A DNA stretch of 59,020 nt from Candidatus Desulfaltia sp. (GTDB lineage Bacteria; Acidobacteriota; Aminicenantia; Aminicenantales; UBA8522). The position numbers and the translations under genes were made by a program. Position 1 is the stretch's first letter. Every line of letters begins with the position of its first letter. Shown in pieces: positions 15,854-26,756 of the stretch. Below the pieces are notes generated by a model. It worked only from the letters and a program-made list of their open reading frames with translations. It did not search any database and was not told the origin of the DNA. The stretch lies in the NCBI GenBank assembly GCA_035528895.1, contig DATKXS010000184.1:1-59020 (forward strand), written 5' to 3'.

Positions 15854-16402
15854 TCAGTCTTTCCGTCCGGACGACCGGCCGAAGGCAAAGAGGTCTCCCG
15901 CCCGGAAGATATCCCGCTGGACAGCGCTCATCGGCTCCAGCGAAAAGGCCTGTTTCTTGCTCAGGTTATGCCCTCGGCCGTTCAGGAAATCGACCTCGAC
16001 CTCATCGCCCGTCTCCATCTTCCGTCCAGCTACGAGTGAATCGAGCTCGACACACCTCAGGATGGGAAGCCCGGAATTGACGGCGTTCCGGAAATAGATC
16101 GATGAATAGGAAGGAGCCAGGATGACGCCGACCTTCAGGGCGGTGAAACAGTCCACGGCCTGCTGGCGTGAGGAGCCGGCACCGAAGTTCCTTCCGGCGA
16201 CGACGATGTCTCCGGGATTGGCCTTTTTTGGGAAATCCTTCCAACCTTCAAGGTTTCCCAGGGCATATTGCCCCATCTCGGCGATTTCGGTGATGTGCAG
16301 GAAGGGGTTGTGGAAGATCTGGTCGGTATCGATGTCTTCAATCAGCCTTCCGGACCCATCGGCGAGAACCCAGACGCGGCCGCGGTGAGTTGATTTATCC
16401 AT
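15854..16402 (-). CDS. leuD: LeuD/HacB-type dehydratase small subunit, copy 1 (divergent)
   Basis: DIDTDQI, GDIVVAGRNFGAGSSRQQA and IYFRNAVNSGLP. Start MDKSTH at 16402. Confidence 0.85.
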   Translation of the reverse strand: MDKSTHRGRVWVLADGSGRLIEDIDTDQIFHNPFLHITEIAEMGQYALGNLEGWKDFPKKANPGDIVVAGRNFGAGSSRQQAVDCFTALKVGVILAPSYSSIYFRNAVNSGLPILRCVELDSLVAGRKMETGDEVEVDFLNGRGHNLSKKQAFSLEPMSAVQRDIFRAGDLFAFGRSSGRKD

Positions 16403-16403
16403 G

Positions 16404-17654
16404 TCACAGATCCTCCAGTCCGGCGATGTGCCCCAGGACACAGGAAGCGGCCACGACGGCGGGGCCGGCCAGGTAGGTCCGGCCCTTCCCCTGCTTTCCG
16501 GGAAAGTTGCGGTTCCCCGTGCTGATCTGGACCTCTCCCCGGCCCGTCAGTCCGACGTGGCCCTCGGCGCAGCCGCCGCAGCCGGGATTGACGACGATGG
16601 CGCCGGCCTCGAACAGGTCCTGCAGAATCCCCTTGGCCAGGAGCTCCTTGTAGACGCGGCGGGTCGCCGGGACGATCTTGAGCATGATGCCTTTCCTGAC
16701 GCCGCGGCCTTTTAGGATATGGGCCGCGACGGCGAAATCCTCGACCCGGCCGTTGGTGCAGGAGCCGATAAACCCCGAGTCGATCTTCGTCCCGCCAAGC
16801 TCGGTCACGGTCTTAACGTTGGCCGGAGAGGGCGGCGCCGCCACCTGAGGAGGAAGTCCCTGGAGGTCGATCTCGATCGTCTCGGCATAACCGGCATCCT
16901 TGTCTGCCACCAAGGGAGAGAAAGGAACTCCGGAGAACGCTTCGCTCTCTTCCCTGGCCGCCGGGCTGCATTCCGGGATGAATCCGATGATCCCGGCCAT
17001 CTCCGTCACCATGCTGCAAAGCGTCAGGCGGCCGGCCAGCGAAAGTCCGGCGACCGCGGGCCCGTAGAATTCGGCCGAGCAAAGGGCGATCTTCTTTGTC
17101 CCCAGCTCTTTCAATAGATACAACGTCAGATCTTTCGCCGAAGTCGGCGGTTTGAACGTTCCTTTCAGCACGACCTTGACGCTCTCCGGCACCTCGAACC
17201 ACGTCCGGCCGGTGCGGAAGGCGAAGGTGATGTCAACATCGCCCATTCCCTGGCCGAAGGTGCCGAGCGCACCCAAGATGTTCATGTGGCTGTCCGTGCC
17301 GACGACCGTACCGTTGGTTCGAGCCAACCCTTCCTCCATCAGGACATGGGTGCCGATGCCGCTATCCACGTCGTAAACCTCCACTCCGTACTTCCGGGCG
17401 AAGTCGCGGCAAACCTGTTGATTATCCGCATATTTGAGGGTGCAGGCCGGGGCGCAGAGGTCGAAGGTGAAGAACGTCTTGGCCTTGTCCGCGAGGGGGA
17501 GCCCCGCATATTCCCGCTCGTAGTTTTTGACAACATTAGGGCCCCCGAAATCCCGGGCCGAGCGGATGTCCAGGTCCATCCAGACGATCTTCCCCGGCGC
17601 GACCTCGTCGGCCGTGTGGGCCTGGATGATCTTTTCGATGACCGTTTTTCCCAT
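16404..17654 (-). CDS. leuC: LeuC/HacA-type aconitase-family dehydratase large subunit, copy 1 (divergent)
   Basis: GTDSH, GSCTNGR, PGCGGC and STGNRNFPGKQG. The three Fe-S cysteines are present. Confidence 0.88.
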   Translation of the reverse strand: MGKTVIEKIIQAHTADEVAPGKIVWMDLDIRSARDFGGPNVVKNYEREYAGLPLADKAKTFFTFDLCAPACTLKYADNQQVCRDFARKYGVEVYDVDSGIGTHVLMEEGLARTNGTVVGTDSHMNILGALGTFGQGMGDVDITFAFRTGRTWFEVPESVKVVLKGTFKPPTSAKDLTLYLLKELGTKKIALCSAEFYGPAVAGLSLAGRLTLCSMVTEMAGIIGFIPECSPAAREESEAFSGVPFSPLVADKDAGYAETIEIDLQGLPPQVAAPPSPANVKTVTELGGTKIDSGFIGSCTNGRVEDFAVAAHILKGRGVRKGIMLKIVPATRRVYKELLAKGILQDLFEAGAIVVNPGCGGCAEGHVGLTGRGEVQISTGNRNFPGKQGKGRTYLAGPAVVAASCVLGHIAGLEDL

Positions 17655-19033: not shown

Positions 19034-20287
19034 ATGAAAAAACGAAAATTGGGCGTCGGCATCATCGGCGGAGGTTTCGTCGCCGGGTTTCATATCCGTT
19101 CCTGGGTCGGCGTCCGCGATGCGGATATTTTGGGGATCTATGACCCCGACAGGAAAAGGGCCGAAGAGGCGGTCGGCATCGCCCGGAAGCTCGAGGTGGG
19201 TGACGCCAAGTCCTACAAGTCGATCACCGATATGATCGCTGATCCCAGGATCGACGCCATCTGGATCTGCGCCCCGAACTTCACCCGGCTGGAAGTCACT
19301 GAAGAGATCGTCCACGCTTTAGAGAAAGGGAAAGGGGACCTGACCGGCGTCTGCTGCGAGAAGCCGCTCGGCCGGAACGTCAAGGAGGCGCGCCGGATGT
19401 TGGAGCTTGTCAGGAAAGCGAAGCTTCTCGACGGCTACCTGGAAAACCAGGTCTTCGCGCCGGCTGTCGTGCGGGGCAAAGGCATCATCTGGGCCCGTGG
19501 GGCGACTCTATCAGGGCGTCCGTATCTCGCCCGGGCGGCCGAGGAGCACAGCGGACCGCACATGCCCTGGTTCTGGGAAGGCTCCCTCCAGGGTGGCGGT
19601 GTGCTTAACGACATGATGTGTCATTCCGTCGAAGTGGCCCGCTTCCTGCTGACCCCGCCCGGGGCGCCGCGGGGCGTGCTGACACCCGTTAAAGTCAACG
19701 CCTACGCCTCCTGCCTGAAATGGCAGAACCCGGAATACGCCAAGGTCCTCCGCGATCAGAGCGGCGGCAAGACCGATTATCTCAAGCGGCCGGCCGAGGA
19801 CTTCGCCCGCTCCCTCATCGAATACAGGGACGAGAAGGGAAACGTGGTCGTCGTCGAGACGACGACCTCTTGGTGCTATGTCGGTGCCGGATTGCGTCTG
19901 AGCATGGAGCTCCTCGGGCCCGAATACGCCCTCCAGATCAACACCCTCGACGCCGGGCTCAAGGTCTTCTTCAGCCGGAAGGTCAAGGGGAAGGCCGGGG
20001 AGGACCTGGTGGAGAAACAGAACGCCGAGGTCGGCCTCATGCCCGTGGTGGCCGATGAGGAAAACGAGTACGGCTACCAGGCGGAGGACCGGCACATGGT
20101 CCAGTCTTTCCTCAAGGGCGCGCGTCCGAACGAGAATTTCGACGACGGCCTCAACGTGACCGAGCTTCTGATGGCCGCCTACATGAGCGCCGAGCGGGAT
20201 AAGACCCTGGCCTTCCCACCGCCGGGGTTGGCGAACTTCATTCCGGCCGTCGCGCAGGGAACCTGGAACCCGAAGAGCAGCAGATAA
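19034..20287 (+). CDS. Gfo/Idh/MocA family oxidoreductase
   Basis: GVGIIGGGFVAGFH Rossmann motif, CEKPLG and GGGVLNDMMCH. Confidence 0.9.
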   Translation: MKKRKLGVGIIGGGFVAGFHIRSWVGVRDADILGIYDPDRKRAEEAVGIARKLEVGDAKSYKSITDMIADPRIDAIWICAPNFTRLEVTEEIVHALEKGKGDLTGVCCEKPLGRNVKEARRMLELVRKAKLLDGYLENQVFAPAVVRGKGIIWARGATLSGRPYLARAAEEHSGPHMPWFWEGSLQGGGVLNDMMCHSVEVARFLLTPPGAPRGVLTPVKVNAYASCLKWQNPEYAKVLRDQSGGKTDYLKRPAEDFARSLIEYRDEKGNVVVVETTTSWCYVGAGLRLSMELLGPEYALQINTLDAGLKVFFSRKVKGKAGEDLVEKQNAEVGLMPVVADEENEYGYQAEDRHMVQSFLKGARPNENFDDGLNVTELLMAAYMSAERDKTLAFPPPGLANFIPAVAQGTWNPKSSR

Positions 20288-25190: not shown

Positions 25191-26756
25191 TCAGGTTTCC
25201 CTTTTGACGGCGATGATCTTGTCTCTATACTCTTTGAGTCCGGGGATGGGAAGACGGATGACGATCGCGTCCTGTTCGTGGAACTTGCAGAAAATTTCGC
25301 AGGCCAGACATTCAGTGCACTTGCCTTTCTTGGCCTCCTCCGGAGAGACGGCTAAAACCGGCTTCCCGTCCTCGATCTTCAAGATCTTGGGAAGGCAGGC
25401 CGGGACGCAGCCCTTGGTCCGGCAATCCGCGCATTTGACATGGTCGAAGGAGATGCGGCCGGTGACCGTCTCGAAGACATAGGCTTTCTCGGGAACCGCG
25501 GGTTCGACGATCGGCCGCACTTCATGGCGCCCGTCCGGATTCTTCGCTACCAGCTCTTCGAGCCGGCGGGCGCAGAATTCGGGCGTATCGTCACGACCGT
25601 ACCCCTCGACGACACCCGGGATTTCCTTCAAATAAGTCTGCAGGATCCAGATCGCCCTTTCTTCGAAATTCCCGCCCAGCCGGATGACCGCGGGGATGGC
25701 CAGTCGCTCCTCCTGGAAGGCCTTGACCAGGCCGCGCGCCGAATGGAACTGCTCCTGGCTGGCGACCCCCGATCCCGAGGCGAAATAGCCCCTGATCCCG
25801 GGCTGGGAGAGGATGATCTTGGCGGCCCGGTAGACCTTGCTGGCCGGAGGGTTGCCGCTCGTGTCGCAAAAATTGGCCAGCTTGAACCCGCGGTTTAGGA
25901 CCGCGTCCATCGACATCATCGACCCGCCGCCACCGGCGCCATGGAAGCCGATGTATTTCTCGTTAGCGGCCGTTTGTTCGACCATCTGGAAGAAGTAGAA
26001 GGTCCCGCGGTAGTCTTTTTCCTCGACCCGGTAGGCGATCTTCTCCAGCTCGGTCGGCGGCCGGTCGAACTCCCGCGCCACCTCGATCCCGAACTCGGGA
26101 TGGCGGTAAACAGCATAGTCATCGATGATAAGGTGACAGTCGGCGGCGAACAGATTTCCCTCTGCCGTGAGGACAAGAGGGTTGATCTCGGCCGAGCGGG
26201 CGTCACTCGAGCGGGCGATTTTATAGAGCTTGGTCAGGAGATCGGACAGCTTCGGCAGGAGCGCGCCCTCGATCCCCACCCGGAGGAGCATGTTCCGCGC
26301 GTCGTACTCAGGAAATCCCTTGAGGACGTCGATAGTCTGGCGGGCGACTTTTTCCGGATGGAGGCGGGCGATCTCCTCCACGCCGGTGCCTCCGACCGGG
26401 CTGAAGATGAGAAGCGGCCGTTTGGAAGCGTCATCGATGACCACCCCGGTGAAATACTCGGCCTGGATGTCCAATTTTTCTTCCACCAGGATCCGGTCGA
26501 CGACGAAATTCTTGACCTTCATCCCCAGGAGCCCGCGGGCCTTGGTTTCCACCTCCTCGGGTGTGGCGGCAAACTGGATCCCGCCGACCCCCGCCCGTCC
26601 GGTCACCCAGACCTGGATCTTGAGGACAACCGGCCGGCCGATCGTCTCGGCGATGCCGCGGGCTTCCTCGGGGGTGGAAGCCACACCTCCCGCCGGGACA
26701 GGAATGCCCCCTTGCTTCAGCAGCTTCTTGCCCTGGTACTCGAACAGTCTGGCCAT
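25191..26756 (-). CDS. sucC: Succinyl-/citryl-CoA synthetase beta-type (SucC/CcsA-like) ATP-grasp subunit fused to a C-terminal 2x[4Fe-4S] ferredoxin-like domain
   Basis: LFEYQGKKLL, GRAGVGGI, EINPL, GAGGGGSMMSMD and DTSGNPP. C-terminal CADCRTKGCVPAC and CTECLACEIFC. Confidence 0.85.
   Translation of the reverse strand: MARLFEYQGKKLLKQGGIPVPAGGVASTPEEARGIAETIGRPVVLKIQVWVTGRAGVGGIQFAATPEEVETKARGLLGMKVKNFVVDRILVEEKLDIQAEYFTGVVIDDASKRPLLIFSPVGGTGVEEIARLHPEKVARQTIDVLKGFPEYDARNMLLRVGIEGALLPKLSDLLTKLYKIARSSDARSAEINPLVLTAEGNLFAADCHLIIDDYAVYRHPEFGIEVAREFDRPPTELEKIAYRVEEKDYRGTFYFFQMVEQTAANEKYIGFHGAGGGGSMMSMDAVLNRGFKLANFCDTSGNPPASKVYRAAKIILSQPGIRGYFASGSGVASQEQFHSARGLVKAFQEERLAIPAVIRLGGNFEERAIWILQTYLKEIPGVVEGYGRDDTPEFCARRLEELVAKNPDGRHEVRPIVEPAVPEKAYVFETVTGRISFDHVKCADCRTKGCVPACLPKILKIEDGKPVLAVSPEEAKKGKCTECLACEIFCKFHEQDAIVIRLPIPGLKEYRDKIIAVKRET

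Follow-up and report, generated by a model that had tools for sequence, protein, structure and literature searches.

Aconitase is the textbook iron-sulphur (Fe-S) hydro-lyase, and the residue His101 stands within its accepted mechanism. Here we analyse two LeuC/LeuD-type pairs, LeuC1/LeuD1 and LeuC2/LeuD2, encoded on one contig of Candidatus Desulfaltia sp. (assembly GCA_035528895.1, contig DATKXS010000184.1, positions 1 to 59,020 of the forward strand; the whole stretch of 59,020 nucleotides is hereafter called the window). LeuC1 belongs to a group of proteins that lack this histidine, which we call LeuCD* (large subunit LeuC*, small subunit LeuD*), while LeuC2 has a canonical active site.

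In aconitase Ser642 is the general base and His101 protonates the hydroxyl; both half-reactions share this Ser base and this acid, and of the 20 active-site residues more than 15 are the same throughout the classical families (PMC8184944). With mitochondrial aconitase (7ACN, 1C96) and the fused PRK07229-type enzymes of bacteria, LeuC1/LeuD1 share the superfamily, the cluster ligation and the equivalents of Asp165/His167, Glu262, Arg447, Ser642 and Arg644, and the substrate of LeuCD*, like that of aconitase, is probably a tricarboxylate. In contrast, the equivalents of Gln72, His101, His147, Asn258 and Arg452 are changed, and there is no Arg580-type loop. LeuC1 lies outside the classical active-site pattern.

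The closest solved relatives are the isopropylmalate/citramalate isomerase (IPMI) MJ0499/MJ1277 (4KP1, 4NQY, 3VBA) and the homoaconitase (HACN) MJ1003/MJ1271 (4KP2, 2PKP) of Methanocaldococcus jannaschii, which have the same two-subunit archaeal-type fold. The AlphaFold2 model of LeuC1 (predicted local distance difference test score, pLDDT, 94.1; predicted TM-score, pTM, 0.92) gave Foldseek TM-scores of 0.91 to 4kp1/4kp2 and of 0.88-0.90 to mitochondrial aconitase. Over their full length the M. jannaschii large subunits are 34-35% identical to LeuC1, and they have in common with it the three Cys, DSH, the Glu262 equivalent and NRN, while the small subunits share GSSR. LeuC1 nevertheless lacks their His of VHD, FDH and CHQ; in it the Asn of TNM is replaced by Ser, and the second Arg of NRNFRGR by Lys. 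Where their small subunits carry Pro-Ala or Pro-Gly, LeuD1 carries His-Asn, and it possesses neither the YLVY nor the YLRT loop. The genomic partners of LeuCD* differ as well, being citrate enzymes and not LeuA/AksA. The analysis shows LeuC1/LeuD1 to be intact and well folded, a two-subunit enzyme of the aconitase superfamily that belongs to its LeuC/HacA branch.

Two further systems offer precedents. Fungi and Thermus thermophilus require two aconitase-family enzymes to convert homocitrate to homoisocitrate: aconitase (or Aco2p) forms homoaconitate from homocitrate, and homoaconitase performs the second half only, homoaconitate <-> homoisocitrate (PMC3556520). The likeness to the present locus, which we propose as a functional analogy, lies in two aconitase-family enzymes per isomerisation followed by a dehydrogenase of the isocitrate dehydrogenase (IDH) family. 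It has its limits: both fungal/Thermus enzymes keep the full catalytic set, the specificity of Aco2p comes down to one Arg-to-Lys change in domain 4, and the genes of both enzymes stand apart from any citrate-cleaving system and from HD proteins. In AcnX, a hydro-lyase of the aconitase superfamily, the leaving hydroxyl is protonated by Lys530, a residue that is not homologous to His101 (PMC8184944), and the Ser base is kept, as it is in LeuCD*; AcnX is a precedent for a relocated acid. AcnX is nonetheless distant from LeuC1 (TM-score 0.60, 14-15% identity), with another domain order, other substrates and another cluster environment.

The neighbours of the two pairs recall citrate cleavage by the citryl-CoA synthetase (CCS) plus citryl-CoA lyase (CCL) of Hydrogenobacter thermophilus or by ATP-citrate lyase (ACL). 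The CcsA-, CcsB- and Ccl-like genes of the window match these families, and related loci carry AclB/AclA-type genes instead. To our knowledge, the reductive tricarboxylic acid cycles described so far include neither LeuCD-type hydro-lyases nor an HD protein.

The active site of LeuC1

Residues were mapped by aligning LeuC1 with MJ0499 and MJ1003, the large subunits solved for M. jannaschii, and a second time with MAFFT, in an alignment containing two bona fide fused aconitases of related genomes (motifs TQDAT, VDHN, CHQ, DSHTP and NRNFEGR). LeuC1 contains ..DIRSARDFGGP.. and ..FFTFDLCAPA.., LeuC2 ..CLSHDNSAA.. and ..IILDHIVPA..; all the motifs that a previous, sequence-only reading of this DNA had contrasted (SHDN and LDHIVP in LeuC2, ARDF and FDLCAP in LeuC1) are present in the open reading frames (ORFs). 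The position of His101, part of the Asp-His dyad of aconitase, is occupied by Leu66 (codon 17459-17457), whereas the preceding Asp65 (= Asp100) is kept (Asp65-Leu66 codons 17462-17457). Both alignments therefore bear out the claim of that reading that LeuC1 lacks the catalytic His and retains the Fe-S cysteines and DSH. Also kept are Asp121-Ser122-His123 (17294-17286; = Asp165-Ser166-His167), Glu218 (17003-17001; = Glu262), Asn381-Arg382 (= Asn446-Arg447) and the cluster ligands Cys299, Cys359 and Cys362 (= Cys358, Cys421 and Cys424).

The observation was correct but incomplete. Arg34 (17555-17553) stands at the position of Gln72, which is His in LeuC2 and MJ0499; Thr102 replaces His147 and His103 replaces Gln148 (17351-17346), i.e. 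the His has moved by one residue; Ser214 (17015-17013) is found at the Asn258 position and Lys387 (16496-16494) at the Arg452 position. LeuC1 thus departs from aconitase at six shell positions, not one. Among the features of the aconitase superfamily that were checked, the Asp-His dyad is absent (Asp65-Leu66), as are the His147, Asn258 and Arg452 features, while the Glu262 equivalent is present; the superfamily match of the pair itself is clear (PF00330, 238.7 bits; PF00694, 43.3 bits).

Such a simultaneous alteration of six shell positions, two of them carboxylate-binding (Gln72 equivalent to Arg, Arg452 equivalent to Lys), could mean that LeuCD* performs a different chemistry on a related molecule, in which His101 and Arg452 are dispensable, for instance dehydration of a citryl-CoA-type thioester, cis/trans or allylic isomerisation, or hydration of dicarboxylates like maleate or citraconate. 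LeuCD-type maleate hydratases and dimethylmalate dehydratases do exist (compare the name of TIGR02087), and the constant association with an HD protein described below would also suit this explanation. The equivalents of the Ser base, Arg644, Asp165/His167 and Arg447 are however invariant, as for ordinary aconitase-type hydration, and the module in which LeuCD* is found has no missing pathway step. We consider a different chemistry improbable.

The small subunit and its loop

LeuD1 keeps Gly76-Ser77-Ser78-Arg79, of which Ser77-Ser78-Arg79 correspond to Ser642-Ser643-Arg644. Its substrate loop is DTDQIFHNPFLHIT, in which His31-Asn32 (16312-16307) substitute for the Pro-Gly that opens the substrate-recognition loop. 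In IPMI and HACN the loop starting at this position governs substrate preference (PMC7308503, citing Jeyakanthan 2010). The small subunits used for comparison (MJ1277, MJ1271, PH1724) and those of the LeuD2 type carry Pro-Gly, Pro-Ala or Ala-Gly at the loop start, the LeuD2-type loop being module-specific (NTDVIFPG[KR]YTY, with Pro-Gly). In the LeuD1-type subunits and fused C-domains, DTD-x-I-[FY]-His-Asn is read in 67 cases out of 67; in a deeper sample of LeuD* the His is again constant (7/7) and is followed by Gly or Ala in two basal members. The Arg of the homoaconitase YLRT loop is missing (FHNPFLHIT in LeuD1), its position being H, A or Y across the clade. That the small-subunit loops of the two pairs differ, as the sequence-only reading had noted, therefore holds well beyond the window: a His-Asn loop in one type and a Pro-Gly loop in the other, each invariant in its own type.

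Natural LeuC*-LeuD* fusions exist (P0122, P0123, P0128 and P0286), and LeuC1 and LeuD1 are therefore a cognate pair. Taken together, the LeuCD* clade has gained two invariant His (LeuD1 His31 and LeuC1 His103) and lost three. On these alignments either of the two gained residues is a plausible candidate for the relocated acid.

Conservation and phylogeny of the subfamily

Searched in full with HMMER, 1.8 billion representatives yielded, after alignment, a set that shares the altered motifs of LeuC1 and includes three natural LeuC-LeuD fusions. In parallel, with one genome scanned for each GTDB species, 560 relatives were found; locus counts rest on the best 80 loci. These 80 come from Aminicenantes, Anaerolineae/Chloroflexota, Bipolaricaulota, Planctomycetota, Gemmatimonadota, Cloacimonadota and Sumerlaeota, and also from Fermentibacterota, WOR-3, Eisenbacteria, Thermoplasmatota, Methanomassiliicoccales and Hodarchaeota. 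Together with the window they provide 81 LeuC1-type sequences, one per species, and 32 LeuC2-type sequences from the same loci; the 81 orthologues span more than 10 phyla of bacteria and archaea.

All 81 LeuC1-type sequences have Arg at the Gln72 position, His103, Ser214, Lys387 and the three cluster cysteines. The His147 position is Ser (62) or Thr (19). At the His101 position there are 42 Leu, 35 Cys and 4 Thr, and never His. The 32 LeuC2-type sequences are, without exception, canonical at the same six sites (H, H, H, Q, N and R). Apart from the Ser/Thr choice at 102, the former His101 position is therefore the only variable one among the changed sites; with the other replacements invariant, the altered site bears the mark of one that is rebuilt and constrained, not decaying, and is a trait of the family.

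This bears on whether LeuC1/LeuD1 is a dead, regulatory or scaffolding paralogue. The presumed general acid is gone and its position varies between L, C and T, and aconitase has paralogues without activity (PMC3556520), Aspergillus AcoB and IRP2 being examples. Against such a pseudoenzyme stand the invariance of the replacement residues, the presence of the cluster ligands and Ser base in 81/81, the repeated and independent fusion of the large and small subunits, the tight operon and the confident structural model, to which is added that LeuC* is found in 90 of 151 sampled genomes of the class (51 of 65 genera) and always as a single copy. We hold this explanation to be very unlikely.

In a maximum-likelihood tree the LeuC* clade (43 rows) is monophyletic with a support of 100/99 and lies apart from all canonical LeuC/HacA, including MJ0499 and MJ1003, whereas the LeuC2-type proteins of the module form their own clade (support 100/100) beside the MJ0499 lineage. 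The LeuC1/LeuD1 pair stays far from the equivalog models of IPMI (TIGR02083, 313.7 for a cut-off of 610.65; TIGR00170, 155.7 for 560.25; TIGR02084, 105.7 for 245.85), and likewise scores 305 and 93.1 with the homoaconitase models NF040615 and NF040604 (cut-offs 550 and 230) and 234.8 bits with the aconitase model PRK07229 (cut-off 612). None of the curated equivalog cut-offs of LeuC, LeuD, HacA, HacB or aconitase is thus even approached. The subfamily can be recognised by a large-subunit signature, all of which is in LeuC1 ([AV]RDFGG, FxFD[LCTY], GIG[STQ]H, DSHxN[IL]L, [AC]S[ML]xTE and NRNFxGK), and a small-subunit signature present in LeuD1 (DTDxI[FY]H[NGA]). Its proteins bear generic names in the databases, and text searches of the literature, of limited coverage, yielded no publication that deals with either the subfamily or the module. 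LeuCD* is a deep and monophyletic subfamily that is apparently undescribed, and thousands of database proteins called "3-isopropylmalate dehydratase" are misnamed.

One locus of the scan has another arrangement: a LeuC*-type gene comes directly after an AcnB gene and before that of an OPT transporter, and a small-subunit gene is not visible there (L014:5402-9269).

Two pairs with different tasks

LeuC1 and LeuC2 are 36% identical, LeuD1 and LeuD2 41%, and in many phyla the two pairs share a strand with one IDH-like gene. Their co-occurrence was counted in the 151 genomes of the class, where a LeuC2-type protein was called at 56% or more identity to LeuC2; a threshold of 50% or more was dropped because MJ0499, an ordinary archaeal IPMI, is about as similar. 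Both types are present in 82 genomes, the LeuC1 type only in 8, the LeuC2 type only in 17 and neither in 44, which gives a genome-level odds ratio of 26.5, phylogeny being ignored. Because they form separate clades, have their own invariant loops, share operons and co-occur, it is well supported that the two pairs are non-redundant and not interchangeable.

A citrate module

Of the 80 loci, which were chosen with LeuC* as query, 68 have LeuD* beside LeuC* on the same strand, 41 the IDH-like gene, 38 the HD gene and 38 LeuD2; Ccl (35), LeuC2 (32), CcsB (30) and CcsA (26) follow. Since many contigs are short, these counts are lower bounds; the metagenome-assembled genomes are incomplete. The commonest order is CcsA-CcsB-Ccl-HD-LeuC2-LeuD2-IDH-LeuC*-LeuD* in Aminicenantes and CcsA-CcsB-Ccl-HD-LeuC*-LeuD*-LeuC2-LeuD2-IDH in Anaerolineae.

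The citrate-activating partner varies. CCS and CCL adjoin LeuCD* in the window and in L011; ACL-type genes take their place in three loci (L012, L016 and L094), with the order HD-IDH-LeuC*-LeuD*-fused second aconitase-AclB-AclA in L016; and a metagenome scan seeded with the HD protein, which recovered about 23 true orthologues, revealed HD-CitF-Ccl-fused LeuCD* (L137; CitF match of 487 bits, LeuCD* motifs present). Two Thermoplasmatales genomes have a canonical LeuC-like gene (392 aa) whose start is overlapped by CitF, the citrate lyase alpha subunit or CoA-transferase (L207:8241-10948 and L208:1336-4043), and which no small-subunit gene adjoins; LeuC*-LeuD* stands alone on another contig, and no further aconitase-family gene was found in these two genomes. 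The Ccl-like protein of the window retains LHGGA, GFGHRVH..DPR, NVD and SR, which we take to be catalytic and oxaloacetate-binding motifs of citrate synthases. Because three unrelated citrate-activating systems adjoin the same hydro-lyases, citrate is the most economical common substrate.

The dehydrogenase points elsewhere. It falls below every NCBIfam equivalog cut-off, its best match being AksF2 (343.6 bits), a homoisocitrate dehydrogenase of methanogens; the closest solved relative of its N-domain is the homoisocitrate dehydrogenase (HICDH) of Thermus, 3ASJ; and its substrate loop, FSPIVRLR, carries Ile in place of the Asn that belongs to the S-x-N motif of isocitrate dehydrogenases. These features suit an explanation in which the two pairs act on different substrates, not on two halves of one reaction: one pair and the HICDH-like dehydrogenase would serve a homocitrate-type or iterative 2-oxoacid route (homocitrate/homoisocitrate, between 2-oxoglutarate and 2-oxoadipate), whereas citrate or a substrate of another chain length would fall to the other pair. 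M. jannaschii likewise maintains separate IPMI and HACN, each small subunit here has its own invariant loop, the genomes with the module mostly own a complete aconitase and IDH already, and it is for homocitrate that a split of labour is documented (PMC3556520). The carbon-carbon enzymes of the module are nevertheless all of citrate kinds (citrate-synthase, ACL or CitF families), the Ccl-like protein keeps the oxaloacetate-binding motifs, and DapF makes a lysine route via aminoadipate unneeded. We know of no member of the citrate-synthase, ACL or CitF families that uses 2-oxoglutarate, and Thermus HICDH accepts isocitrate too. Different substrates are a rather unlikely reading, though the likeliest of the alternatives.

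Some operons contain LeuCD* alone beside a citrate system, i.e. HD-CitF-Ccl-LeuCD* (L137), HD-LeuCD*-AclBA (L012) and Ldh2-CcsAB-Ccl-HD-LeuC*D* in Chloroflexota. Like the 8 genomes of the class with LeuC* and no LeuC2-type protein, they would be expected if LeuCD* were an isozyme able to carry out the whole aconitase or isomerase reaction alone, in a site of different construction, LeuC2/LeuD2 and the dehydrogenase having another role or being redundant. But LeuC*-only operons are over-represented because the loci were chosen with a LeuC* query, a canonical LeuC is likewise found directly behind CitF, and the two types strongly co-occur, in one operon, across phyla. A complete isozyme is in our opinion unlikely.

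In the Chloroflexota loci (L011:1637-2737; also L064, L072, L074 and L075) a gene for an Ldh_2-family (malate/sulfolactate-type) dehydrogenase precedes CcsA-CcsB-Ccl-HD-LeuC*-LeuD*, a position that would fit the reduction of oxaloacetate released by citrate cleavage. The HDIG protein is a constant part of the module in both bacteria and archaea, and its motifs MPFTLLI, LLHDVGKL and HIIAAH.KEGD are conserved; we found no relative of its sequence among solved structures and no obvious step for it to catalyse.

A proposed function

Taken as a whole, the explanation that we favour, and to which we give about an even chance, is that LeuCD* is a hydro-lyase with a rebuilt site acting in a citrate module in which the two pairs have divided roles. 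The module would connect acetyl-CoA plus oxaloacetate, citrate and 2-oxoglutarate. LeuCD* would remain an Fe-S hydro-lyase whose base is the Ser alkoxide and whose Lewis acid is the cluster, and the proton-transfer duty of His101 would have passed to another residue, LeuD1 His31 and LeuC1 His103 being the candidates. Most likely, each hydro-lyase would be locked to one tricarboxylate binding mode: LeuCD* may catalyse citrate <-> cis-aconitate, and LeuC2/LeuD2 cis-aconitate <-> isocitrate, supplying the adjacent dehydrogenase. Split halves on citrate are our best guess as a single reading. The choice of citrate over homocitrate or another substrate is one that we infer, and the assignment of one half to each pair, which extends the analogy with the fungal and Thermus enzymes, is the weakest step.

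Several points weigh against this scheme. Since aconitase employs one and the same acid and base in its two half-reactions, an enzyme for a single half does not follow from the missing His101 alone. The sequence-only reading had supposed that the two pairs act on different substrates or perform one half each: a difference of task is supported by the separate clades, the own loops and the co-occurrence, and homoaconitases limited to one half-reaction do have the fungal and Thermus precedent (PMC3556520), but its deduction of half-reactions from the missing His does not follow. The 17 genomes that keep the LeuC2 type without LeuC* include some that are nearly closed, and the partnership is thus not obligatory. 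Gene order links the lyase and the dehydrogenase no more closely to one pair than to the other, as the commonest order has the IDH-like gene between the pairs and HD precedes either of them. The substrate loop of the dehydrogenase is nearer to that of homoisocitrate than of isocitrate dehydrogenases, and a citrate-to-2-oxoglutarate module looks redundant in an organism that has its own citrate synthase, AcnB and IDH, unless it is specific to a direction or a condition. Finally, the gains of His and the loss of His101 all map to a single branch and count as one evolutionary event, so that their covariation is no statistical proof of compensation.

A wider and more specific proposal, which we put forward only as a possibility and with some doubt, is that a "split aconitase" operates in many uncultured anaerobes, among them members of the Aminicenantes, Anaerolineae, Bipolaricaulota, Planctomycetota, Cloacimonadota, Thermoplasmatota and Asgard groups. 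It would consist of LeuCD* as a dedicated citrate (de)hydratase whose catalytic His has migrated to LeuD1 His31, a canonical LeuCD-type isocitrate (de)hydratase, a HICDH-like dehydrogenase and a required HD protein, forming a hitherto unrecognised branch between citrate and 2-oxoglutarate coupled to CCS/CCL, ACL or CitF/CCL. If active, LeuCD* is a natural experiment in rebuilding the chemistry of aconitase without His101, His147, Asn258 and Arg452. The module is present in abundant lineages of sediments and the subsurface, and its function bears on how they link acetyl-CoA, citrate and 2-oxoglutarate; a reductive or oxidative branch, glutamate synthesis and fermentation are possible settings.

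The rest of the genome

Automatic annotation would make the two pairs ordinary duplicated isopropylmalate or citramalate isomerases of leucine and isoleucine synthesis, as their database names and a generic family match (PRK00402, 399 bits) suggest. The genome to which the window belongs is 93.5% complete, and profile searches, positive in 14 of 14 control genomes, found in it neither PF00682 (the HMGL-type family of LeuA, CimA, homocitrate synthase and Re-citrate synthase) nor PF00920 (IlvD). With no LeuA-type synthase and no IlvD, neither pair makes leucine or isoleucine; the scores far below the LeuC and LeuD equivalog cut-offs and the citrate enzymes as partners speak against it as well. 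This explanation deserves practically no credence, and the name "LeuC/D", used for the two pairs in the sequence-only reading, is contradicted as far as it implies leucine enzymes. Lacking both enzymes, the organism is probably auxotrophic for branched-chain amino acids.

The same genome encodes a full citrate synthase (contig C163), AcnB (884 residues) and a second IDH (contig C50), which rules out that the two pairs are its sole aconitase; elsewhere this is ruled out by the bona fide PRK07229-type aconitases that most other LeuC* carriers own. Lysine synthesis via aminoadipate as the purpose of the module is weakened by the presence of DapF, the match to DapB_N being marginal.

Gene organization in the window

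The features of the module in the window are listed in Table 1; going by the names of near-identical database proteins, the window belongs to Aminicenantes. The dehydrogenase, leuC1 and leuD1 genes are a tightly coupled trio on the minus strand. The ATG of leuC1, preceded by AGGAG, lies 14 nucleotides past the stop of the dehydrogenase gene, and that of leuD1, with GGAGGA upstream, one base beyond the TGA stop of leuC1; the alternative start GTG-16441, which would give a longer leuD1 ORF, is unnecessary. The second minus-strand group, from the CcsA-like gene to leuD2, is three kilobases upstream of the trio.

Table 1. Genes of the citrate module and the gene that interrupts it, with their positions in the window
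Feature	Position	Strand	Remarks
LeuD1, small subunit, 182 aa from ATG 16402	15854..16402	-	cognate partner of LeuC1
LeuC1, large subunit of the His101-less LeuCD* subfamily, 416 aa	16404..17654	-	
IDH/HICDH-like beta-decarboxylating dehydrogenase (IDH/isopropylmalate dehydrogenase family), 371 aa	17669..18784	-	near LeuC1; synteny in 41/80 loci
Gfo/Idh/MocA-type oxidoreductase	19034-20287	+	between leuD2 and the dehydrogenase gene
LeuD2, canonical small subunit, 164 aa	20822..21316	-	
LeuC2, large subunit with canonical site, 417 aa	21313..22566	-	all aconitase catalytic residues
HD(IG)-domain protein, 177 aa	22897..23430	-	conserved module member
Citryl-CoA-lyase-like short citrate-synthase-family protein, 271 aa	23427..24242	-	NF004869, 282 bits (cut-off 212)
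SucD/CcsB-like CoA-ligase alpha subunit, 302 aa	24217..25125	-	family profile match
SucC/CcsA-like ATP-grasp subunit, 521 aa	25191..26756	-	C-terminal Cys-rich ferredoxin-type tail

In this lineage the Gfo/Idh/MocA gene, on the plus strand, interrupts the module, whose nine genes are contiguous in most relatives. The trio is followed by tsaB and rimI. The longest tsaB ORF (TTG 15888) shares the last 35 nucleotides of leuD1 (15854-15888), and in relatives tsaB comes within a few bases after leuD*; dehydrogenase-leuC1-leuD1-tsaB-rimI may form a single transcript.

The ATP-grasp subunit of the window differs from the known citryl-CoA synthetase by its C-terminal tail (25191-25460, minus strand), which is Cys-rich and ferredoxin-like (CADCRTKGCVPAC ... 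CTECLACEIFC); such a tail is absent from known succinyl- and citryl-CoA synthetases.

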